DNA of 64,000 bases from Minisyncoccota bacterium. GTDB taxonomy: Bacteria > Patescibacteriota > Minisyncoccia > Phycocordibacterales > DATDWN01. The notes under the pieces were generated by a model that was not told the DNA's origin, did no database searches, and saw nothing but the letters and a program-made list of their open reading frames with translations. Shown in pieces: positions 3,340-34,471 of this stretch. The stretch is taken from contig JBAZZC010000001.1 in NCBI GenBank assembly GCA_041658985.1, positions 65,813 to 129,812 on the forward strand. Reading direction: 5' to 3'. The position numbers were made by a program, and so were the translations under genes. Within the stretch, counting starts at the first letter, position 1, and each line of letters begins with the position of its first letter.

Positions 3340-3510
3340 TTTTTTGAGACACGCATAAAGCCCTGCTGGGCTTTTGCTATGCTCGTCAATCAAGAAAACA
3401 ATCTTTCTCAATACTGGCCCTTTCGCAAACTCGGGCTTCGCCCTCAAACAGTGCTTCGGGCTGGCGTACTTCGTCGTTGTTTTCTAATTGACTGTGCAAT
3501 GTCTCAAAAA
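3340..3510. repeat. ~170-bp intergenic repeat element, copy 1 (family also at 11051-11222 and 34254-34424)
   Basis: begins TTTTTGAGACACGCATAAA, core gctatgctcgtcaatcaagaaaacaatct...ttcgcaaactcg...cttcgtcgttgttttctaattgactgtgcaatgtct; ~85-90% identity to other copies by eye; inverted 16-17 bp arms (gtcaatcaagaaaacaa / ttgttttctaattgac). Confidence 0.8.
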
Positions 3511-3691
3511 ACAAGTTTCTCATTCTAACGAGAAAGAAATTTTGTATTTTATACACATCATCTTTAATCCACAGTCAATATGTTGCTTTAAAAAACCGTT
3601 GGTATATACTATTATTCATAGTAGATAGTTTGGACTTTCTGTTCGAAGGTTCCAAAAAATAAAATTATTATTAATTAATTACATTATTAAT

Positions 3692-6949: not shown

Positions 6950-6978
6950 TTGACAAAGAGTGAGTAACTTGTTACAAT
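6950..6978 (+). promoter_or_regulatory. consensus sigma70-type promoter (TTGACA-17-TACAAT) upstream of GC-rich island B
   Basis: TTGACA 6950-6955, 17-nt spacer, TACAAT 6973-6978. Confidence 0.5.
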
Positions 6979-6996
6979 ACACACAGACCAGGTATA

Positions 6997-7401
6997 GTGC
7001 TACATGCGTGGCCAACTATAACTTGGGCAACTGGAGGACTCGTCGTGGAAAGAATATTCCGATTCGAAAGGTGCCCCTGCGGGAAGAGCGTCGCGCACGG
7101 ATACTTCGTGGCCTACAACCCCAATGGTGGCGGAGTTCTGATACTCCCCATCAAGGTCGATTCCATCATGGCCGGCTGTGCTCTGATGGCACGAATGGCT
7201 TACATTTTCCGCGACCAGGACATCTCTGCGCTGGAACAGCAGCTCCACGACGTCGGCCTTCCCGAAACCAGGAGGAGTGCCGACGAGGACATCGAGAACA
7301 TCGAGGCACAGATCCAGGGCATGTGGAGACTTCTGGATCTGGCAGTCGAGGCCACCGGGGGTCTCACGGTCACGATGCGACACGTCGTCGTGAGGCCCTA
7401 G
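6997..7401 (+). CDS. hypothetical protein in GC-rich island B (frame choice uncertain; overlapping ORFs in other frames)
   Basis: 134-aa ORF with natural-looking composition; G+C-rich region produces competing ORFs 6960-7490(+) and 7000-7422(-); + strand favoured by upstream promoter. Confidence 0.35.
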   Translation: MLHAWPTITWATGGLVVERIFRFERCPCGKSVAHGYFVAYNPNGGGVLILPIKVDSIMAGCALMARMAYIFRDQDISALEQQLHDVGLPETRRSADEDIENIEAQIQGMWRLLDLAVEATGGLTVTMRHVVVRP

Positions 7402-7709
7402 GCCAGCAACACGCGCTCCCACCAGTTCCGTCCAAAGACACCAAGACGCCGACCCTCCTTCCTGGGGGGCCGGCGTTCACTTTTATATAAAACATTCTAC
7501 CAATTTTAAATTGCTTAGTTTCAAAAAAATTAACTGTCGGGGTGCCGAGTGAAAAGTCGTGAACCGACTTCGCAAGACCTTGAATATTTTGTACTCAAAA
7601 TGTGAAAGGTGTACTCCACGTAAGGAGGCAAACTCGGGCCGCATAAATTTTTACTAAAAAATTTCCACAGAAACATAACATGTTTCTGGAAGTTGTTTTC
7701 AACACTTCG

Positions 7710-9442: not shown

Positions 9443-11048
9443 TTTCTCAATCCCAAAAGAAGTTACACATGTAACACAAACGCTAGAAAAAGCTGGTTTT
9501 GAGGCTTTTCTTGTGGGTGGGTGTGTTAGAGATTTAATAAGACAGCAATTGGAAATTGGTCAGATGGATGCAATTCAAGGCGGAAATAGAAATAGACGAG
9601 GAGGCGTACATGGGTACGGTGACGAGAATATTTCTATTTCCAACGCAGAAGTGCGCCATATGCCCAATTTTCAACCAAAAGATTGGGATGTAGCGACTAA
9701 TGCCAAGCCAGATGAAATTATAGCCTTATTTAGCAAGACTTTTTATGAAAACGAATTTGGTACAGTTGGGGTTGTAAACGAGCAAACAGACAATGAGACA
9801 CTAAAAGTGATTGAGGTAACTCCATATCGCATAGAATCAAAATATTCTGACGGAAGACACCCGGATAGTGTTGTTTTTAGCCAAAAAATTGATGACGACC
9901 TAAAAAGACGTGACTTTACAATCAATTCTCTGGCCTATTCTGTTTCTGCCTCATCAGCAGACGGGTCACAGGGAACAATTGTTGATTTATACGATGGCCA
10001 GAAAGATATACAAAACAAGGTCTTACGCACAGTGGGTGAGCCAGTAGACCGTTTCACAGAGGATGGTCTACGTATTTTGAGAGCAATAAGACTAAGTACA
10101 GAACTTGGATTTGAAATAGACCCAGATACGGAAAAGGCTATATTTGAGAATTCAAACCTCTTGGAAAACATATCCATGGAACGCATTAGGGATGAATTTA
10201 CAAGGATAATTATGTCAGAGAAACCAATGGACGGCCTACTTGCTATGAAAAAGTTGGGAATTATGAAGTATGTAGTTCCAGAACTTGAAGAAACCTATGG
10301 GGTTGAACAAAACCAAGCCCACGCCTACGACGTCTGGGAACATCTACTTCGTTCTGTACAACATTCAGCCGATAAAAATTTTCCTCTGGAAATTCGTTTG
10401 GCGGCTCTATTACACGATATTTCTAAGCCAGAGAATCGTCGTAGAAGCAAGGACAAAGACAAGTGGACTTTCTATGGCCACGAAGTTGTCGGGGCAAAAA
10501 CAGCAAAAAAAATCCTAACAAATCTAAAATATTCAACAAAAATAATTGAAAAAACTGTAATTCTCGTCAGGTGGCACATGTTCTTCTCCGACACAGAGCA
10601 AATTTCGCTCTCTGCGGTCCGTAGAATGATTGTAAATGTTGGAAGCTCTTCCATATGGGATTTGATGAATGTGCGCATCTGCGACCGTATAGGCACTGGT
10701 AGGCCTAAGGAAGACCCATATCGTCTGCGTAAATACCACGCAATGATAGAAGAAGCCCTTCGAGACCCAATTTCTGTTGGAATGTTAAAAATTGATGGTA
10801 AAGGATTAATGGATGTTACACATGTAACACCAGGGCCAAAGATTGGTTTTACTTTACATGCACTTCTTGAAGAGGTTTTAGAAGACCCAAAGAAAAATAC
10901 AGCTGAATATCTAGAAAAAAGGGCCAGTGAGCTTATTTTACTTCCTGAAAATGAATTAAGGGCACTCGGAGAACAAGGAAAGATGTCAAAGGAAGAAGCA
11001 GATGAGGAGGAAATCAAAAAGATAAGAGGAAAACACTACGTAAAATAG
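9435..11048 (+). CDS. cca: CCA-adding tRNA nucleotidyltransferase with HD domain; contains ~40-aa in-frame insertion
   Basis: GFEAFLVGGCVRDL...DWDVATNAKPDEI (pol-beta NTase head), HD motif HLLRSVQH...LLHDISKP; insertion between VRDLIR and PKDWD. Confidence 0.88.
   Translation: MNNFSIPKEVTHVTQTLEKAGFEAFLVGGCVRDLIRQQLEIGQMDAIQGGNRNRRGGVHGYGDENISISNAEVRHMPNFQPKDWDVATNAKPDEIIALFSKTFYENEFGTVGVVNEQTDNETLKVIEVTPYRIESKYSDGRHPDSVVFSQKIDDDLKRRDFTINSLAYSVSASSADGSQGTIVDLYDGQKDIQNKVLRTVGEPVDRFTEDGLRILRAIRLSTELGFEIDPDTEKAIFENSNLLENISMERIRDEFTRIIMSEKPMDGLLAMKKLGIMKYVVPELEETYGVEQNQAHAYDVWEHLLRSVQHSADKNFPLEIRLAALLHDISKPENRRRSKDKDKWTFYGHEVVGAKTAKKILTNLKYSTKIIEKTVILVRWHMFFSDTEQISLSAVRRMIVNVGSSSIWDLMNVRICDRIGTGRPKEDPYRLRKYHAMIEEALRDPISVGMLKIDGKGLMDVTHVTPGPKIGFTLHALLEEVLEDPKKNTAEYLEKRASELILLPENELRALGEQGKMSKEEADEEEIKKIRGKHYVK
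9545..9676. repeat. ~130-bp palindromic element inserted in-frame in cca
   Basis: terminal inverted repeats gcaattggaaattgg / cccaattttcaacc and inner 13-14 bp inverted repeat ggaaatagaaatag / tatttctatttcc; encodes QQLEIGQMDAIQGGNRNRRGGVHGYGDENISISNAEVRHMPNFQ absent from canonical CCA enzymes. Confidence 0.65.
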
Positions 11049-11050
11049 CA

Positions 11051-11222
11051 TTTTTGAGACACGTATAAATCGTTGGTACAATTTTACTATGCTCGTCAAT
11101 CAAGAAAACAATCTTCCTCGACACTGGCACTTTCGCAAACTCGTCGCTTCGCTCCTCAAACAATGCTTCGTGCTGGCGTGCCTCGTCGTTGTTTTCTAAT
11201 TGACTGTGCAATGTCTTAAAAA
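11051..11222. repeat. ~170-bp intergenic repeat element, copy 2
   Basis: TTTTTGAGACACGTATAAATCGTTGGTAC...gctcgtcaatcaagaaaacaatcttcc...ttgttttctaattgactgtgcaatgtcttaaaaa; antisense small ORF (MHSQLENNDE...) shared with copy 3. Confidence 0.8.
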
Positions 11223-27048: not shown

Positions 27049-27288
27049 ATGAATTATGTTACATCAATTTTTAGCATCCTAGCAATTATTATCTCTATTT
27101 TAGCTTGGCGAAAAAACCGTGCAGTTTATGAAATAGTCTCTAAAGATGATAAATTTGGTTATGAAAAAATCAATGAATTATTAAAGACAGGTAAATACAC
27201 AATCTTACATATCAAAGAGGACCCCTTAAACCATATGAGATTAATATATATTTTGGGTAAAATTCAAAAAGGGTCTTGGTTAGAATAA
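27049..27288 (+). CDS. small membrane protein (80 aa), hypothetical
   Basis: one TM helix SIFSILAIIISILAW; start chosen at ATG after pnp stop. Confidence 0.3.
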   Translation: MNYVTSIFSILAIIISILAWRKNRAVYEIVSKDDKFGYEKINELLKTGKYTILHIKEDPLNHMRLIYILGKIQKGSWLE

Positions 27289-27297
27289 GATTATTTC

Positions 27298-27330
27298 ATG
27301 GCTGTTTCAAAAATTTACAGTGCACAGATG
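27298..27330 (+). repeat. 33-bp duplicate of comM 5' end (30/33 identical to 27906-27938)
   Basis: atggctgtttcaaaaatttacagtgcacagatg vs atggctgtttcaaaaatctacagcgcacagaca. Confidence 0.8.
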
Positions 27331-27458
27331 ATACCTCTTAACGCATAAATTAGTTAACGTTTCGTTTGCTTGACTTTTTAAGACTACTTACTGTACAATA
27401 TTAGAGATTATGGGCTTCGGCCTCTGAGAAACCGTGTCGCAAGGCGCGGTTTCGTCGT

Positions 27459-27857: not shown

Positions 27858-27905
27858 ATTTATATTGTACTATAAAAGTTTTTGGTGTGGTAGAATTATT
27901 TTATT

Positions 27906-29489
27906 ATGGCTGTTTCAAAAATCTACAGCGCACAGACAACGCATCTTACTGCACAAATTATTGATATTGAGGTTGATTTGTCCAAGGGACTTCACTCGTT
28001 TTCTATCGTTGGTCTAGGAGACAAGTCAATTGAGGAATCAAAAGACAGGGTTGGGGCAGCGATAAAAAATTCTGGTTTCAAATCACCAAAAAATAAAAAT
28101 CAAAAAATTGTAGTATCACTCGCTCCGGCGGACATAAAGAAAGAGGGTCCGCTTTTTGATTTACCGATTGCTATTGCATATCTTCTGGCCTCGGAAGACA
28201 TAAAAGCAGATACAAAAAATAGAATCTTTGTTGGAGAGCTGTCTTTAGATGGCGAACTTAGGCCAATAAAAGGCGCTCTACCTATTACCCAAAAAGCCAA
28301 GAAAGAAGGCTTCAAAGAGATATTTTTGCCAAAAGAGAACGCCGAGGAAGCTGTAAATATAGAAGGTATTACTGTTTATGGCGCAGGGAGTTTGTTAGAG
28401 GTTTTGCAACACATAAATACAAAACGGTCCGCCTCATCGGCGGATGAACTTGGGGATACTGGAATAATTCACAAAGAGATCCCCAAGTTCAAAAAAATAA
28501 AGAAAAAGAAAATCGCACGAGAAATTGATATTGATTTTGCTGATATAAAAGGTCAAGAGTCGGCAAAAAGGGGATTAGAAATCGCTGCGGCCGGTGGACA
28601 TAATATAATAATGTATGGACCTCCGGGGACAGGCAAAACAATGCTCGCAAAAGCATTTACACATTTACTTCCACAACTTTCGTTTGATGACATGTTAGAA
28701 GTTACTTCTATTTATTCTATTGGTGGAATGTTGTCAGAGGGTTTGATAGAACATCCACCTTTTCGCTCACCACACCACACCGCCTCTTATGTCTCTCTCG
28801 TCGGTGGTGGAAGTAATTTAAAACCCGGAGAAGTCACGCTCGCACATAAGGGAGTGTTATTCATGGATGAGTTTCCTGAGTTTGATAAAAAGGTTTTGGA
28901 AAGTTTACGTCAACCTTTGGAAGATAGGGTGGTAACTATTTCTCGTGCAAAGGGAAGCGCAAGATACCCAGCACATTTTATTTTAATTGCCACAATGAAC
29001 CCGTGTCCATGTGGAAATTATGGAGTGAAAGGTAAGGAGTGTATTTGTTCTGCACAGAATATAGAAAAATATAAAAGAAAAATGTCTGGACCGATTGTAG
29101 ACAGAATAGATATGTGGGTAGAAGTTTCAAAAGTTGAACACGAAAAATTAACTGATAGCAGGGAAATGCACGAGGGAACAAATGTTATGAAGCCTCGTGT
29201 AGAAAGGGCCAGAAAAATAGCGGAGCAAAGATATAAAAAGCTAGGACTCAAAACAAAAACAAATGCCGAGCTCTCTCCAAAAGATTTAGTCAAACACATT
29301 GTCTTGTCGGATAAAGTGAAAGAAGTTTTGAATAAATCAGCAAAACAATTAGACCTCTCCGCCCGTTCATATCACAGAATAATAAAACTAGCCCGCACAA
29401 TTGCGGACTTGGGTGGTTCAGAGAATATTTCCGAAAATCATATTATGGAAGCGATTAACTACCGTCCCAAAAAATATCAAAATATATAA
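27906..29489 (+). CDS. comM: YifB/ComM-family Mg-chelatase-like AAA+ ATPase
   Basis: Lon-like N-domain, Walker A GPPGTGKT, Walker B LFMDEF, C-terminal Mg-chelatase domain; contains in-frame palindrome at 28425-28444. Confidence 0.9.
   Translation: MAVSKIYSAQTTHLTAQIIDIEVDLSKGLHSFSIVGLGDKSIEESKDRVGAAIKNSGFKSPKNKNQKIVVSLAPADIKKEGPLFDLPIAIAYLLASEDIKADTKNRIFVGELSLDGELRPIKGALPITQKAKKEGFKEIFLPKENAEEAVNIEGITVYGAGSLLEVLQHINTKRSASSADELGDTGIIHKEIPKFKKIKKKKIAREIDIDFADIKGQESAKRGLEIAAAGGHNIIMYGPPGTGKTMLAKAFTHLLPQLSFDDMLEVTSIYSIGGMLSEGLIEHPPFRSPHHTASYVSLVGGGSNLKPGEVTLAHKGVLFMDEFPEFDKKVLESLRQPLEDRVVTISRAKGSARYPAHFILIATMNPCPCGNYGVKGKECICSAQNIEKYKRKMSGPIVDRIDMWVEVSKVEHEKLTDSREMHEGTNVMKPRVERARKIAEQRYKKLGLKTKTNAELSPKDLVKHIVLSDKVKEVLNKSAKQLDLSARSYHRIIKLARTIADLGGSENISENHIMEAINYRPKKYQNI
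28425..28444. repeat. in-frame short GC palindrome (family 1) within comM
   Basis: ggtccgcc-tcatc-ggcggat encoding RSASSADE. Confidence 0.7.
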
Positions 29490-29493
29490 TTTG

Positions 29494-29522
29494 TTGACAA
29501 GACAACAATATAAGTATATAAT
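29494..29522 (+). promoter_or_regulatory. perfect consensus promoter TTGACA-17-TATAAT driving GC-rich ORF 29547
   Basis: TTGACA 29494-29499, 17-nt spacer, TATAAT 29517-29522; SD aggaaagagagg before ATG 29547. Confidence 0.6.
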
Positions 29523-29546
29523 ATTGGCAGGAAAGAGAGGTTAGAT

Positions 29547-29903
29547 ATGGTGACTCAGATTTCACTCCATGGTTTCTGGCCACTGAGTTTTGCTATCGCA
29601 ACACTCAGTGCAATCGGCACCCTCTATGGAATTTGGGGGTTGTCGATGTGGTGGAGGGGGAAGGTATCATTCATCGTCGCGGCCGCCAGCACTGGTTTGG
29701 TTTGCTACAACATCAACCCAATCACCCTGAAGCTGTACTCGCAAGCGCAGGCAGAGCTGGGGACATTCTGGCTGTGGGTCCTGTATGCCACCAGCATTGC
29801 CCTCTGGGCAACCAGTGTCCTGACAGTTCTCATCTTGAGAATGTTCGTCATCGACATGTGGGGCGACTGGCGCCGATACCGAGCGCGCCGGCAATCCGCC
29901 TAA
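29547..29903 (+). CDS. small integral membrane protein (3-4 TM), GC-rich island F
   Basis: hydrophobic helices FWPLSFAIATLSAIGTLYGIWGL, VSFIVAAASTGLVCY, FWLWVLYATSIALWATSVLTVLIL; strongly G+C-rich third positions. Confidence 0.55.
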   Translation: MVTQISLHGFWPLSFAIATLSAIGTLYGIWGLSMWWRGKVSFIVAAASTGLVCYNINPITLKLYSQAQAELGTFWLWVLYATSIALWATSVLTVLILRMFVIDMWGDWRRYRARRQSA

Positions 29904-29993
29904 ACTCACGCCCCCGCGTGGCCAAAGAGCCATCGGGGCTTTTTGGTTAAAAATTTTTATTTGGTTTGACACGTATGGTATAATACGCACAAT

Positions 29994-30749
29994 ATGATAG
30001 AAAAATATCTTGAAGATGCCGGGTTGAGTGACAAAGAGGTGAAGATTTATCTTCAATTAATCCAGATGGAGAACGCTTCTGTTGTTGATTTGGCAAATAA
30101 AACAAAAATCAAAAGACCGACTGTCTACACCATTCTAGATTCGTTAGCTAAAAAAGGTCTAGTGAGTGAAATAGATGAAAATAAAAAAGCCAAGTATGTG
30201 GCCGAACCACCAGAGAGACTAAAATTATTTATAGAAAGAAAAGAAACTTTCTTGGGTGAATTAAAAAATCGTTTTGTAAATGATATTATTCCTCAAATAA
30301 AAAGTTTTCAAAAGGAAACGGGAGAGAAACCAACGGTAAAATTCTTTTCTGGTAAAGAAGGAATCCTTAGTACCAATGAAGATGTTTACGACGGAAACCC
30401 TGATGGTTCTCCAATTTATATAATATATTCCAAAGACCTTCTTGATGAGGTTTTTAAATCTACAGAAACAGACAAATACAAAAATACAAGAACCAGTGCG
30501 GGAATTAAAGCAAAAACCCTCTATAATTGGTCAAAAGGTGAAAAAAAATCGGATGAATTAGCAGAAAGAATACGGGTTGATGAAAAAAAATATCCTTTCT
30601 TTGCTGATATAAGTATATATAAAGATAAGGTCAGAATTAGCGTATTAGGTAAAGAGCTATCAGGAATATATATAAAGAGTAAAGACTTTGCCGAAACATT
30701 TAAAAGCTTATTCAATCTAGCTTTTGATAATCTGAAAAACAAACAATAA
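29994..30749 (+). CDS. TrmB-family transcriptional regulator (paralogue 3)
   Basis: AGLSDKEVKIYLQLIQMENASVVDLANKTKIKRPTVYTILDSLAKKGLVSE wHTH. Confidence 0.6.
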   Translation: MIEKYLEDAGLSDKEVKIYLQLIQMENASVVDLANKTKIKRPTVYTILDSLAKKGLVSEIDENKKAKYVAEPPERLKLFIERKETFLGELKNRFVNDIIPQIKSFQKETGEKPTVKFFSGKEGILSTNEDVYDGNPDGSPIYIIYSKDLLDEVFKSTETDKYKNTRTSAGIKAKTLYNWSKGEKKSDELAERIRVDEKKYPFFADISIYKDKVRISVLGKELSGIYIKSKDFAETFKSLFNLAFDNLKNKQ

Positions 30750-30758
30750 ACACAAATG

Positions 30759-30797
30759 ATGAAGGCCCGGCCGGATGTTACTCCGGCCAGGCCCTGT
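30759..30797 (+). terminator. rho-independent terminator (ggcccggccgga-tgttac-tccggccaggcc + TGTTTGT)
   Basis: 12-bp GC stem after TrmB-like gene stop. Confidence 0.6.
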
Positions 30798-31383
30798 TTG
30801 TCGGGTCTCCCACAAAGGATGACCCTCGCTGCGTGCCCAACAACCCAGTGGGTTGTGGGGCACCTTGTAGCTAGTCGCCCATTTTCCTAAAACTCCTTCC
30901 AAAAACAGTGCCGAACGACTGACTGACCAATTAACTACGCTGGACTAAAACCCACTGGCCCTACTTGGGATGCCCTATTGCACCCCAAGTTCGCCCGCCC
31001 GGCTCTAGTCCCACATATCGCCTCCCTTATTAGTTGAGGTTGACGTCTCTAGGGGTAGTATACACCCTACAATTTTTTTGTCAAATATTGATTTCAAAAC
31101 AGATAAACTCCATGTCAATTTATTTTTAATCTAGTCAGTCTCAATTATAAAGCAAAGAGTGATAAATGGCCTTATTTAAGACTATATTCGTTGTTAGTAA
31201 AAATGACTTGTCAGTTTAGCTTGACAAAAAAAGGGTATTGGTATATACTATCTCTAGAATCAAGTTAACAATAAGTCAGACTGCTTTGACAATAAATAGT
31301 TTTCACTTCCACTTTGGCTGGCCCGGATCGCACACATTACTTGCGAGGGGCCCCAAAGTGGGAGTGAAAACTCAACAAATGGG

Positions 31384-31704
31384 GTGGATATGAACAAGGT
31401 CATCGTCGGCGTCGTGCTGGTGCTGGTTCTGACGGTGTTCGTTGGTGGGTGTGAGCTCAACTCAGTGGTGGTTCGTCACTACTGCGATAAAGAGGTTTCG
31501 TACAACCTCTGGAAGAAAGATTCGCAGTACTGGCTGAACCTCCACGTCGGCTCGGTTGGCGAAAGGGCTTGTGCCGTAAATCCAGACATGCCTCGAGCCA
31601 TCAACTTGCGACAGTACGTTTCCTCGGGCGAGGAAGCGGACAAGTTGATTGAGAGGCACCGGCGTGCCTACGCCGAGAGACTTACCAGACCGAAAGTGAA
31701 CTGA
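31384..31704 (+). CDS. putative lipoprotein (106 aa) in GC-rich island G
   Basis: signal peptide with lipobox VFVGGC; G+C-rich. Confidence 0.45.
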   Translation: MDMNKVIVGVVLVLVLTVFVGGCELNSVVVRHYCDKEVSYNLWKKDSQYWLNLHVGSVGERACAVNPDMPRAINLRQYVSSGEEADKLIERHRRAYAERLTRPKVN

Positions 31705-31838
31705 CCTCCCCGGTCGTCGTCGCCCCGTGTAGACCAATCCCAAGTCTACCGAGTTAGAAACTGGGACAATAATACTTCGGGGAAGTACCGAAGCGCCTAA
31801 CAAGCGGTCACTGTTCGTCTTCTGGAGCGTCATCCCAG

Positions 31839-31900
31839 AACTGTATCGAGATGTGTATCTCGACTGATGAGTCCTTCAATAAGTTCAGGACGAAACAGTT
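31839..31900 (+). ncRNA. type III hammerhead self-cleaving ribozyme
   Basis: AACUGUA^UCGAGAU-gugu-AUCUCGA-CUGAUGA-GUCC-uucaauaaguuca-GGAC-GAAA-CAGUU: helix III 6 bp (31839-44/31895-900), helix I 7 bp hairpin, helix II 4 bp, full catalytic core, GUA cleavage triplet. Confidence 0.8.
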
Positions 31901-32630
31901 GGTTCCTTAAAAACAATTTTCCGAAACACCTGCCTCCTTCTTGGTTCACTAATATTAAGTGATTCAAGAAGGGGGTAGGTATGCTACGGGCAGATACCAG
32001 AACCTCCATAATGGTGTGATTTGATAGGTACACCTGTAAGAGGTGTAAGTAACAGATGATCCACATGGCATAGTGGGTAACGGGGTAAGGCTCTCCGTGT
32101 CATCGTGTTACCACATCAAATGGGTATAGTGCCACGCCAAAACTGGCGGGGGACACTATATCAACTGGAGTACTCCAGACTGCCCAATTAGAGCTTCGGA
32201 AGGTTGTAGCTACCAAACCTTGCCCTGAGGAACCAATGTTCCTCGGGGTTCCTTAAAAGCAAATCACGTTGTGGTTTCCTTTTAAGGGAAGAGAGGAACA
32301 CGAGGATAAACAAACACCTAAGTTGACCTCCTCTTGTATGTGAATCTCTTCCCGTCATGCCGTTGTCTAGGTCAGTGCAGAGACCAGAGGACAAGAAGGG
32401 TGAAATACTCCGCCTTTAAGTGATAAACCCTCCACTGGCCCAAAAGGTCAGAAGGCGGATGGTGAGTTAAGTGACTCATCATTGGGGATTAAAATACGGG
32501 TGGCCACCATGTTCTACAAAACAAGGAGGTCGGCCAAGCCCGCAAAAAACACCCCGAACTGCACACGTTCTTTGGAGCACAGGCTCCACGATTAAGGCTT
32601 CCAAGCTACCATCGTGGAGCCTTTTTCGTA
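31846..32630 (+). ncRNA. candidate ~785-nt structured non-coding RNA with hammerhead-processed 5' end and hairpin terminator
   Basis: no convincing ORF on either strand; G+C-rich with many local hairpins (e.g. gaggaacc-aatg-ttcctc); bounded by ribozyme cleavage site and terminator 32578-32630. Confidence 0.3.
32578..32630 (+). terminator. rho-independent terminator, copy 1 of an identical 52-bp repeat
   Basis: ggctccacgat-N18-atcgtggagcc + TTTTTCGTA; identical copy 32951-33003. Confidence 0.75.
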
Positions 32631-32736
32631 TCTAAAATGTGTCCCCAGGAGAACTTGACTTTTACCACCTGTCTGTGTTATAATACAAGTAGGAGGTGGG
32701 GCACTACTAACAAAACCCACCGAAGGGAGTTAACAA

Positions 32737-32937
32737 ATGGCAAAGAAGAAGTACCGAAAGCCCCCGAAGGGCTCGGGGGCGGAGTTCCTCGCAAGACTCG
32801 ACTGCCATGCGTCGACGAGGCGGGTGGCAGACGTCGGTCTCGGCCGGGGAGTGACCAGGCGGATTCCTCGTCGTGAAAATCTCGACGAACGAGCGGGTGA
32901 TTTCGGGGATGATGAGAAGAAAGAGAGGTACAATTGA
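32737..32937 (+). CDS. small basic protein (66 aa), hypothetical; bracketed by identical terminators
   Basis: MAKKKYRKPPKGSG...; SD gaagggag; G+C-rich. Confidence 0.4.
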   Translation: MAKKKYRKPPKGSGAEFLARLDCHASTRRVADVGLGRGVTRRIPRRENLDERAGDFGDDEKKERYN

Positions 32938-32950
32938 TGTTCCTTGGGGC

Positions 32951-33003
32951 AACAGGCTCCACGATTAAGGCTTCCAAGCTACCATCGTGGAGCCTTTTTC
33001 GTA
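32951..33003 (+). terminator. rho-independent terminator, copy 2 of 52-bp repeat
   Basis: identical to 32579-32630. Confidence 0.75.
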
Positions 33004-33010
33004 TAAAAAT

Positions 33011-34036
33011 TTAAAATGGATTTTTTGCTCCTCTAATTTCAAAGTGAAGATGTATACCCGTCGGACCCTTCACTCTACCCGTCTTACCCATTTTACCTAT
33101 AACCTGACCTTGTTCTACATAATCCCCGGCACTAACTAATATTGAATTTAGATGACCATAAACTGTCTGGGTACCATTTCCGTGTTTGATAATAATATAG
33201 TTACCATACCCACCATTCCAACCGGTTCTTGCAATCTGTACTTGGCCAGAAGCTGAAGCTAAGATATTTGTGTTAAGAGCTGCCGAAATGTCCACCGCAT
33301 ATCTGTCATGTAGTCCCTGTGTTTTAATTCCACCAATAAGTGGTCGCATGTAATAACCCTCGTAAACCGGATATAACGGAGCTGGTTTAGATATAACACT
33401 ACCACCAAAAGAAACAGGAATAACCTCACCATCGGGCACAACTATTATGTCTCCAACGGCCAATTTGGCATTTTTTGTTAAGTTGTTATATTGCAAAACC
33501 TCTTCCAAATCACCCTTATAAAGCCTGGTTATGCTTTGAAGCGTGTCCCCAGATTTTACTCTGTGTTGTATACCCGAAATAGGTAAAATAACCAGAGTTT
33601 GGCCCTCTGATATTGTATTTCCCTTTATATCGTTACCCCATCTAATAGTGTTAGATGAAACCCCAAACATTTTAGCTATGGCTGGTAGAGTATCTCCCTT
33701 GTGAACAACGTACAAACTAATCTGGTCTTCGCTTACCGTTTTTGTGTCAGCCGGCTTTTGTATCTCTGGTAAAAGAGAGGTCCCGTCAACAATAGTCGCC
33801 TCTTCTTTTGTGGTTGAAGACATTTGGCTCGGAGAGAGAGTGGCTTGAAGTAAAGCCATGTTTTGTGAATTTAGTTGTTGTACTTCCTCAGCCTGAACGT
33901 TGGTTGAAAATAAGTCAGAAAAAAAAGAAAAAACACCGGCTTCTGTGTGCAACGGCATTAAAAGTAATCCCAAAAGAGCAATGCTCAAGAGACTAGGTGT
34001 TATTATGTTCACCACATGTTTCTCCGATCCCACCAA
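33011..34036 (-). CDS. LysM-domain M23 family metallopeptidase
   Basis: two LysM repeats (YVVHKGDTLPAIAKMFGVS..., HRVKSGDTLQSITRLY), M23 motifs GYGNYIIIKHGNGTQTVYGHL and IHLHFEIR; N-terminal signal/TM. Confidence 0.88.
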   Translation of the reverse strand: MVGSEKHVVNIITPSLLSIALLGLLLMPLHTEAGVFSFFSDLFSTNVQAEEVQQLNSQNMALLQATLSPSQMSSTTKEEATIVDGTSLLPEIQKPADTKTVSEDQISLYVVHKGDTLPAIAKMFGVSSNTIRWGNDIKGNTISEGQTLVILPISGIQHRVKSGDTLQSITRLYKGDLEEVLQYNNLTKNAKLAVGDIIVVPDGEVIPVSFGGSVISKPAPLYPVYEGYYMRPLIGGIKTQGLHDRYAVDISAALNTNILASASGQVQIARTGWNGGYGNYIIIKHGNGTQTVYGHLNSILVSAGDYVEQGQVIGKMGKTGRVKGPTGIHLHFEIRGAKNPF

Positions 34037-34253
34037 ACGCCAACTCTGGGGCTTGGTGCTTTTAAGACCGGACCCAAACTGTGGATCCTGTTGTGAGCTT
34101 TTAATAAGCTAAAAATTAAAATAAATTCTGCTTTTCTGTAATAAAATACGGCTCTACTAGACCATATCTTAAAACTTTAGTTCGGTACATAATCTAGTAT
34201 ATACCCTTTAATCCTTGGGTCAATCTAAGTTATAAACAGCCATCTCATCACTG

Positions 34254-34424
34254 TTTTTTCAAGACACGTATAAATCGTTGGTACGATTTTACTATGCTCG
34301 TCAATCAAGAAAACAATCTTCCTCAGTACTGGCCCTTTCGCAAACTCGCTTCGCTCAAACAGTGCTTCGGGCTGGCGTACTTCGTCGTTGTTTTCTAATT
34401 GACTGTGCAATGTCTTGAAAAAAC
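34254..34424. repeat. ~170-bp intergenic repeat element, copy 3
   Basis: TTTTTTCAAGACACGTATAAATCGTTGGTACG...ttgttttctaattgactgtgcaatgtcttgaaaaa. Confidence 0.8.
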
Positions 34425-34471
34425 AGTGATTTCGCCTCAAACAACAGATCTTGCCATGATATAATCACTAG

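Follow-up and report, generated by a model that had tools for sequence, protein, structure and literature searches.

What does a G+C-rich, gene-poor island of about 2.2 kb produce behind a TrmB-like gene of a Minisyncoccota bacterium, and is it foreign to its genome? The host belongs to the candidate phyla radiation (CPR), whose members have tiny genomes and are poorly understood; the sequence is also found, without a difference, within contig JBAYKJ010000002.1 of a Candidatus Paceibacterota metagenome-assembled genome (MAG). The island lies at 30760–33010 of the stretch analyzed here, 64,000 nucleotides of contig JBAZZC010000001.1 (assembly GCA_041658985.1, forward-strand positions 65,813 to 129,812; hereafter the window, in whose numbering positions are given). 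An earlier note, made from the letters alone, had described it as a compact foreign module whose main product may be a processed structured RNA. In this study, the reading preferred, at a probability of about 60%, is that of a ribozyme-punctuated, TrmB-linked locus of the Paceibacterota, whose transcript would be divided into small-protein messages and structured RNAs. This reading is carried by the anatomy of the sequence, its conservation, the covariation of its helices and its synteny with the TrmB-like gene. The rightward strand carries, in this order, a leader hairpin, a lipoprotein open reading frame (ORF), a 3′ untranslated region (UTR), a hammerhead ribozyme, three RNA modules named A, E and B3′, and a terminator.

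The type III hammerhead was found at 31838–31901 (+ strand) with the Rfam model RF00008 (40.6 bits, E value 1.3e-6). Its core is canonical (CUGAUGA...GAAA), with CUGAUGAG...CGAAAC at 31864–31896. The cleavage triplet is GUA at 31843–31845, so that U31846 would be the new 5′ end; the predicted cut at A31845/U31846 thus coincides with the start that the earlier note had given to an ORF-free RNA. The 785 nt from there through the terminator (31846–32630) are free of any ORF that is conserved or credible (no stop-free run exceeds 84 codons), and they fold at −313.6 kcal/mol vs. −228 ± 7 for shuffled sequences (z = −11.6), in agreement with the many hairpins and the lack of credible ORFs noticed earlier. 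In none of the relatives does an intact long ORF cover the whole of this stretch. A frameshifted gene was considered and rejected, as the ORF fragments have no Pfam match and the relatives have no common ORF there; nor does reading UGA as a sense codon open any long frame on the + strand. Scanning 29400–33200 against Rfam 15 (cmscan, E ≤ 10) returned the hammerhead and chance microRNA and small nucleolar RNA matches only, and the whole window at the gathering threshold gave four tRNAs only. Further, no Rfam match to known large RNAs, group II introns or other ribozyme classes was obtained in the window or in nine related loci.

Related loci, denoted here by L numbers, were gathered by the synteny of TrmB-like orthologues (75–99% identity), by a degenerate pattern of the leader hairpin, which led to 10 metagenome loci, and by adding three distant TrmB-like orthologues (52–56% identity), giving 13 distinct versions. 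The orthologues of 75–99% identity are followed by 2–3.6 kb with few or no called genes that are piecewise homologous to the island, and all relatives retrieved, the most distant of which have about 50% protein identity, carry a GC-rich, gene-poor stretch of 2–4 kb behind the TrmB-like gene. Wherever the flank is long enough in the 13 versions, the gene is directly upstream, at amino-acid identities down to 49–56%. This linkage also holds on contigs that lack the neighbouring M23 peptidase, ComM and UvrD genes or have them in another arrangement (L008, L010, L042, L043 and L044 differ in neighbours), and the TrmB-like gene is the sole protein gene constantly linked to the locus.

The composition of the island is as striking as first reported: 300-nt windows across 30650–33050 reach a GC content of 0.45–0.56 vs. 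0.38 for the whole window, and the GC content at third codon positions (GC3) of its small ORFs is 0.66–0.70 vs. 0.25–0.33 in adjacent housekeeping genes. A recently acquired foreign or mobile island, for instance a phage or plasmid remnant, would account for GC and GC3 values far above the genome background, for the orphan cargo ORFs, for the mosaic identity among relatives, and for a neighbouring GC-rich cassette with a 118-aa ORF (29494–29950) that is an indel vs. L004. However, the framework stands beside the TrmB-like gene in 13 distinct loci, down to about 50% TrmB identity, and all copies are GC-richer than their own surroundings. No phage genes, integrase or transposase lie within 10 kb on either side of the island, and BLAST of the island against phage and plasmid records gave no match. 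Scans of viral contigs with the palindrome of module E, the leader hairpin and the B3′ motif returned only AT-rich chance matches unlike the window RNA, and a 20-mer of the 3′ UTR searched against viral contigs and species-representative genomes found nothing except one chance match in Stygiolobus. The island proteins have no PHROG match, and the small ones match neither PHROG nor PADLOC. In L011, a Phage_integrase gene is located about 5 kb upstream of TrmB. The synteny with the TrmB-like gene, the GC rise common to all copies and the lack of any mobile-element match indicate a conserved, vertically anchored locus rather than a one-off insertion, and the idea of a compact foreign module had to be given up. 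Recent acquisition is therefore very unlikely, and already largely refuted for the framework. Judged from sequence and synteny, the island is the local copy of a lineage-wide Paceibacterota locus kept beside a TrmBL2-like gene; its cargo, by the same comparisons, is exchangeable and compositionally odd, and the identity among relatives is mosaic.

Hammerheads recur in this locus. A search with Rfam and a core-motif scan yielded 15 type III hammerheads in 8 of the 13 distinct loci, 0–3 per locus and all on the rightward strand, among them one in the window, two each in L006, L008 and L042, and three each in L011 and L044. The helices surround the core, helix III being open and helices I and II capped by loops. 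The copies of the relatives score 24.5–44.9 bits and have GUC, GUU, UUC or CUC as the cleavage triplet. In an alignment of 14 copies, 90% of the cells are paired and 13 of 18 pairs show compensatory changes, while none of 500 shuffles was as good and slid controls reached 32–52%. Helix I is 100% paired with six of its seven pairs covarying, two pairs covary in helix II, and five of six in helix III. The core (CUGAUGA, C3–A9; GAA, G12–A14; A15.1–U16.1) is invariant in 13 of the 14 related copies; the exception, L006-a, has U3. This copy (L006 7698–7750) carries U for C at core position 3 (UUGAUGAG) without a compensating A8 and is, by its sequence, possibly weakened or inactive. A 17-nt complementarity between the hammerhead core of the window and 32473–32489 was discounted as a by-product of a conserved B3′ hairpin that is present in hammerhead-free loci too.

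The hammerheads also resemble each other beyond the core. All are type III with a common loop-1 motif (UGUGUA-like), and nearly all have a small hairpin in front of them and GUUCYUUAAAA behind. After this tail comes a large structured RNA in the window, L006, L008, L010 and L011, or instead a ribosome-binding site (RBS) and an ORF, of 79 aa in L043 and a Ro60/TROVE–vWA gene in L044. With the ribozyme unit placed before RNA modules in some loci and before an RBS and ORF in others, the locus is best described as an array of cassettes that are delimited by ribozymes and hairpins and reshuffled in content and order by recombination. In L044 (6811–8819; TrmB 52% identical), the first hammerhead lies 110 nt upstream of the gene for a 614-aa Ro60/TROVE + vWA protein, and two more are found at 9946 and 10428. 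Ro60 proteins bind structured and misfolded RNAs.

Several ribozymes on one strand raise the possibility that the units they bound are excised and ligated into circular RNAs, as in retrozymes or viroid-like RNAs, the window being a one-ribozyme derivative. Two or three same-strand hammerheads occur in L006, L008, L011, L042 and L044, 420–1250 nt apart (L044 has a 3.1-kb interval as well). Hammerhead cleavage leaves 5′-hydroxyl and 2′,3′-cyclic phosphate ends, which by established biochemistry are substrates of RtcB-type ligases; the hammerhead-bounded unit of L008 folds with z = −6.2, and the block order is circularly permuted between L004 and L019. However, the window has a single hammerhead and a 3′ terminator, neither a ligase nor a reverse transcriptase was noticed in the vicinity of the loci, and Perreault et al. 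detected no circles from clustered bacterial hammerheads (PMC3088659), so that this origin of the window RNA is hardly probable. The units resemble retrozymes and viroid-like circular RNAs (PMC5680766, PMC7761336) in that type III hammerheads bound structured units of 400–1000 nt in the relatives. They differ in being encoded in DNA at a fixed site of a bacterial chromosome and in lacking LTR-like (long terminal repeat-like) repeats; the window unit is delimited by one hammerhead and a terminator, not by two ribozymes. A wider proposal, that the locus represents a new Paceibacterota class of large modular functional RNAs which are excised by hammerheads and circularized in the loci with two or three ribozymes through an RtcB-type ligase or the reverse reaction, is also doubtful, and quite unlikely on present evidence. 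If it were true, the permuted, duplicated and mosaic order of the modules would follow from an exchange of RNA units or of DNA copies of them, and the locus would amount to a bacterial equivalent of retrozymes anchored in the chromosome; the Ro60-like cargo of one relative hints, in this view, at a role in RNA quality control or in a ribonucleoprotein.

The RNA downstream of the predicted cut was resolved into three modules by comparison with relatives. Module A (31902–32215, +) starts with GUUCCUUAAAA, followed by a long hairpin closed by ACCUGCC/GGGUAGGU, and has homologous regions in L004, L019 and L014, as well as after a hammerhead in L008 and L011. Module E (32216–32290, +) consists of a variable hairpin and an invariant stem, CCUUAAAAG/CUUUUAAGG, enclosing another variable hairpin; ten copies were found in seven islands. 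Module B3′ (32291–32578, +; conserved core 32361–32575) was defined by alignment with L004 (two copies), L019 and L006. The covariation check that had been suggested earlier, once made on these homologues, revealed compensatory changes in 25 of the 68 consensus pairs of A + E (93% paired) and in 24 of the 63 pairs of B3′ (88.5% paired; slid controls 37–48%), and for neither were any of 500 shuffles as good. No ORF in these modules is common to the window, L004 and L019. Further, the best-conserved part of B3′ differs between L006 and the window by indels of 3 and 4 nt, which argues against a common reading frame. As the three modules keep their pairing by compensatory changes, the A–E–B3′ product is taken as a stable stand-alone structured RNA, which, with modest confidence, may act through a bound partner.

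The part upstream of the ribozyme is likewise conserved. The leader hairpin of the rightward transcript (31298–31372, +; 75 nt) has 20-nt arms that are 95% complementary. In a nine-sequence alignment, six of its 25 pairs show compensatory changes and one U·G pair is invariant in 9/9, which fits an RNA on the + strand. It is followed by the gene of a small lipoprotein of 104 aa at 31390–31704 (+), or of 106 aa from the alternative start at 31384, with a signal peptide and a VGGC lipobox; this is the mini-protein with a VFVGGC lipobox that the earlier note had recognized, and its likely start is the ATG at 31390 (MNKV...), as in the homologues. These occur in L002, L019, L006, L011 and L008 and have YCD.EVSY.LWKQ...LHVG...INLSQ.VSSPEEADKL in common. 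The lipobox, [LVI][ASTVI][GAS]C, is VFVGGC in the window and FVGC, FGGC, LVGC or LIGC in four homologues, L019 being atypical. A profile search of 1.84 billion proteins gave 31 representative clusters, and the six members encoded in the locus have a signal peptide, a lipobox and a conserved mature domain. By sequence, therefore, this lipoprotein belongs to a real but rare family. No match was found in Pfam, PHROG or PADLOC, and its AlphaFold2 (AF2) model, a four-stranded sheet with a helix at a mean confidence (pLDDT) of 74, has no significant fold match in the PDB.

A sequence search with the lipoprotein gave one close homologue, on the 1-kb metagenome contig L002, which aligns with the window from the minus-strand RNA described below to the first strand of hammerhead stem III. 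In this comparison, conservation is higher in the promoters, leader hairpin and 3′ UTR than in the ORF, and compensatory changes occur in these parts. The 3′ UTR (31705–31837, +) comprises three small hairpins and a hairpin abutting hammerhead stem III; it is conserved in L002 and L019, in both of them more strongly than the lipoprotein ORF, and its helices change in a compensatory manner (CUUCGG/CCGAAG vs. CUUUGG/CCAAAG; CUGG..CCAG vs. CCAG..CUGG).

Two divergent promoters precede these elements. The rightward one (31221–31249, +) reads TTGACA-17-TATACT and that of the minus-strand RNA (31057–31084, −) TTGACA-16-TATACT, each matching 11 of 12 consensus positions, and both are kept at fixed spacing in 9 of 10 islands. 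A consensus scan located four near-perfect sigma-70 promoters within 4 kb (31084–31057, −; 31221–31249 and 32655–32684, +; and 29494–29522). An inverted repeat, TGTCAR-N6-TTGACA (31210–31226 in the window), has the −35 element of the rightward promoter as its right half. It is kept in eight islands, including L002, L004, L006, L008, L010 and L011, with a varying spacer, and is by its sequence a candidate operator for the TrmBL2-like protein, or else a back-to-back pair of −35 hexamers.

The leftward promoter would drive a GC-rich structured RNA of about 300 nt (30750–31050, −; fold z = −7.1), delimited by a terminator scan and ending at a hairpin and U-tract (30795–30762) that abut the TrmB stop codon. 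Nine islands have the same layout, with only patchily conserved sequence. Near its 5′ end, 4–6 nt downstream of a GGGAGG Shine–Dalgarno (SD) sequence, lies the mini-ORF AUG-UGG-GAC-UAG (MWD*; 31005–31016, −). The pattern AUG-NNN-GAC-(NNN)-stop follows GGAGG in 9/9 islands, as MWD*, MHD*, MQD*, MHDE* or MNDY* and with all three stop codons, and no gene lies downstream of it in the window. The conserved SD and M-x-D-(x)-stop with all stops used point to a translated mini-ORF or a ribosome-loading site. A strong SD with a very short ORF at the extreme 5′ end of an RNA is known from the cat and erm leaders and from STAB-SD; the RNA found here resembles them in this respect, and differs in its 3–4 codons, the invariant Asp codon, the absence of a downstream gene and a terminator facing the TrmB-like gene. 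Both promoters, the leftward RNA and the leader hairpin lie within the interval covered by the earlier note, which made no mention of them.

At its right end, the island carries two intrinsic terminators. Terminator 1 (32579–32630, +) has a 12-bp stem, an inner hairpin and a U-tract and is 98% identical in L004; terminator 2 (32952–33003, +) is identical to it. These 52-nt hairpins, which had been noticed as identical flanks of a 66-aa Lys/Arg-rich ORF and were recovered at the same positions, sit inside a 67-nt direct repeat. The ORF itself was also recovered in an ORF scan at 32737–32937 (+). It has a promoter of its own at 32655–32684 (+; TTGACT-18-TATAAT with TG, 11/12), from which a 5′ UTR hairpin and an RBS extend to 32736. 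It had been suggested that homologues of the 66-aa protein might occur together with the RNA; none did, as 5.8 billion proteins contained no homologue apart from the protein itself. In L004, terminator 1, the promoter, the 5′ UTR hairpin, the RBS region and terminator 2 are kept around an unrelated 65-aa Cys-rich protein. From this comparison, the region is a promoter–terminator slot with exchangeable cargo.

The order of the blocks varies widely among relatives, as does the content after the leader hairpin, which may be the lipoprotein, other mini-proteins, the Ro60-like gene or large structured RNA modules. L019 matches the window up to the hairpin before the ribozyme and then runs straight into module E, its order being leader, ORF, 3′ UTR, E, B3′, A, E and terminator with no hammerhead. 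L004, which has no hammerhead and no lipoprotein gene, reads leader, A, E, B′, E, B3′ and terminator. In L008 and L011, the order is hammerhead, a module C of about 800 nt, hammerhead, an A-like module, E and the lipoprotein ORF, and in L006 it is hammerhead, C, hammerhead, E, lipoprotein ORF and B3′. A block of 565 nt is 95% identical between L004 (7522–8085) and L019 (5122–5684), compared with 72–82% for the remaining island, indicating recent recombination between lineages. Module C, which the window does not have, was seen between two hammerheads in four lineages at 72–81% identity (L006 7607–8549, L008 7525–8470, L010 7864–8656, L011 8045–8848); it opens with a long covarying hairpin and the motif GGAGAGCC.GA.AGUCCAGCAAUGGACGA.

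Such shuffling could also be achieved on DNA, by integron-like cassettes for which the inverted repeat of E, CCTTAAAAG...CTTTTAAGG, or the repeated terminators would serve as recombination sites. In 10 copies of E, the arms are invariant in sequence while the centre varies; a 16-nt direct repeat, GGTTCCTTAAAA(A/G)CAA, stands on either side of module A; the block order is permuted among the window, L004 and L019; and ORFs are swapped cleanly between conserved flanks. The arrays share with those of integrons one strong promoter, short, mostly orphan and exchangeable cassettes, some of them ORF-less, and imperfect palindromes in between. However, none of the locus tables lists an IntI-type tyrosine-recombinase gene next to TrmB or the island, nor is any other recombinase gene linked to the locus. 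Module E, a palindrome with invariant arms and a variable centre, has neither the attC core nor an attC consensus, and its invariant U·G pairs fit an RNA helix of the + strand. The separators (ribozymes and hairpins) are most readily understood as RNA elements. As GUUCYUUAAAA follows nearly every hammerhead, the direct repeat may itself be an RNA motif that recurs, and ordinary homologous recombination between repeats explains the shuffling. An integron-like origin is thus scarcely credible.

The ribozyme-punctuated reading would work as follows. Two back-to-back sigma-70 promoters would fire in opposite directions. The leftward one would produce the structured RNA of about 300 nt with its SD and 3-codon mini-ORF, which would stop at a terminator common to the TrmB-like gene. 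The rightward one would give a single transcript of 5′ hairpin, lipoprotein ORF, 3′ UTR, hammerhead, 785 nt of ORF-free RNA and intrinsic terminator. The hammerhead would then cut itself after A31845. The upstream product would be the lipoprotein mRNA, with its 2′,3′-cyclic phosphate end behind several hairpins, and the downstream product a 5′-hydroxyl RNA starting with the ribozyme fold and continuing through A, E and B3′, with the ribozyme fold shielding one of its ends and the terminator hairpin the other. The ribozyme would act as a natural insulator and processing site that provides a defined, structured 5′ end and uncouples the downstream fate from the upstream message. From the third promoter, the slot for a small ORF would be expressed separately, ending at a second copy of this terminator. 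We infer that the TrmB-like protein may control the locus and that the RNA may have some function in trans.

Several points weigh against this reading. The window hammerhead scores 40.6 bits, below the Rfam gathering score of 48.5, and the locus can do without a ribozyme, as four of its versions (L004, L019, L014 and L017) have no hammerhead. The module alignments hold five or six sequences each, and the tested structures were derived from the same alignments, which inflates the paired fraction. Transcription, cleavage and RNA stability are all inferred, and the GC3 of 0.66–0.70 in the small ORFs is not explained by RNA structure alone. A further point concerns the layouts: module E lies directly upstream of the lipoprotein ORF in L006, L008 and L011, and in the window only about 70 nt separate E from B3′. 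Given these E/lipoprotein/B3′ layouts, A + E can be the 5′ UTR and B3′ the 3′ UTR of a lipoprotein gene, and the window RNA might be such a cassette without its former ORF instead of a dedicated non-coding RNA.

This leads to the main rival, according to which the 785-nt RNA is a remnant with no function of its own, namely what is left of a lipoprotein cassette, its 5′ UTR (A + E) and 3′ UTR (B3′), after the ORF had been deleted or relocated upstream. It gains from the position of B3′ after the ORF in L006, from the position of the window lipoprotein ORF upstream of the ribozyme, and from the short non-homologous ORFs that L004 and L019 carry after E. However, the ORF-less versions (window, L004 and L019) are 18–28% divergent and have kept their pairing by compensatory changes, L004 has extra copies of the modules rather than decay products, and the fold z-score of −11.6 is extreme. 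Because the ORF-less copies kept their pairing through this divergence, the remnant is ranked lower and considered unlikely. The earlier suggestion that a processed structured non-coding RNA is the main product accordingly stands in one part, as the modules recur in relatives with compensatory changes and no common ORF, while its 3′ half has the layout of an expression cassette without an ORF.

How much of the ribozyme-punctuated locus is new was judged against known systems. RiboJ, an engineered hammerhead part attributed to Lou et al. in 2012, reportedly removes the upstream RNA when placed before a unit and leaves a defined structured 5′ end. The locus likewise places a self-cleaving hammerhead before a unit, and by analogy its ribozymes would be a natural, repeated use of this principle, being native where RiboJ is engineered. 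In prophages, clusters of hammerheads flank genes, and it was proposed that they divide long transcripts into RNAs of gene length (Perreault et al. 2011, PMC3088659). Similar to these clusters, the locus has several same-strand hammerheads between the genes of one unit, and its cargo genes are not constant. In contrast to them, it is associated with neither a prophage nor an adjoining integrase, being chromosomal and linked to a regulator throughout a phylum-level lineage; among the delimited units are several large structured RNAs that lack ORFs; and all copies are type III with the common loop-1 motif and the 3′ GUUCYUUAAAA tail. With OLE, GOLLD, ROOL, raiA and HEARO, the window RNA has in common a length of hundreds of nucleotides, several domains, a high GC content in an AT-rich genome, strong promoters and covarying helices. 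It differs from them in having no Rfam match at E ≤ 10, a variable order and copy number of modules, flanking positions around ORFs and a ribozyme cap.

The hammerhead class and ribozyme-punctuated transcripts in prophages are therefore already known. The chromosomal, regulator-linked and phylum-wide CPR setting, the large modules without Rfam match, the mini-ORF RNA and the cassette-like reshuffling appear to be new, and full-text literature searches yielded nothing that pairs a hammerhead with CPR, Patescibacteria or Parcubacteria. Whereas the published bacterial context of hammerheads is that of prophages, they occur here as recurrent punctuation in a conserved CPR chromosomal locus. At least four new RNA elements are supported by covariation (the leader hairpin, A, E and B3′), to which the ribozyme-bounded module of about 800 nt in relatives and the structured RNA with a conserved 3-codon mini-ORF are added as further RNAs; new large-RNA families would thus extend the short list of bacterial non-coding RNAs. 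The locus offers a natural test case for ribozymes as transcript insulators, and the pairing of regulator and RNA (the TrmBL2-like protein and the divergent promoters) is open to in vitro work although the hosts are uncultured.

The neighbouring regulator gene (29994–30749, +) encodes a TrmB/TrmBL2-like DNA-binding protein (Pfam TrmB PF01978, 2.4e-16) with PDB profile matches to TrmB and TrmBL2, the latter being an archaeal DNA-binding chromatin protein. The family layout of an N-terminal winged helix, a coiled-coil helix and a C-terminal PLD-like domain is present in the window protein. Its AF2 model (pLDDT 90.6) has TrmBL2 as the best full-length PDB match in Foldseek (E 1e-12), and the C-terminal domain alone resembles the PLD3 fold (E 2e-4). 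The defence-system and phage-protein libraries (PADLOC and PHROG) gave generic winged-helix matches only.

Elsewhere in the window, other GC-rich units were observed. The segment 29494–29950 is a self-contained GC-rich cassette with a 12/12 promoter (29494–29522), an ORF for a 118-aa membrane protein (GC3 0.70) and a terminator; it is missing from the close relative L004, and L006 has a PhdYeFM/PemK toxin–antitoxin pair in its place. Another unit at 6950–7490 (GC 0.56, GC3 0.70) adjoins tRNA-Pro; its parts are a promoter with 11 of 12 consensus positions, an orphan ORF of 134 aa and a hairpin resembling a terminator. Small-ORF cassettes of this kind, GC3-rich and with strong promoters, thus seem to form a class in this genome. 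A repeat family of about 170–185 bp with 89% identity occurs at 3340–3513, 11051–11222 and 34247–34430; the copy that separates the genes for the M23 peptidase and UvrD resembles a miniature inverted-repeat element in that its terminal inverted repeats of 20 nt are perfect (ATCACTGTTTTTTCAAGACA). Finally, a 72-nt direct repeat of 79% identity (27281–27352 vs. 27891–27960) links the start of the ComM-like gene with a site about 600 nt upstream.

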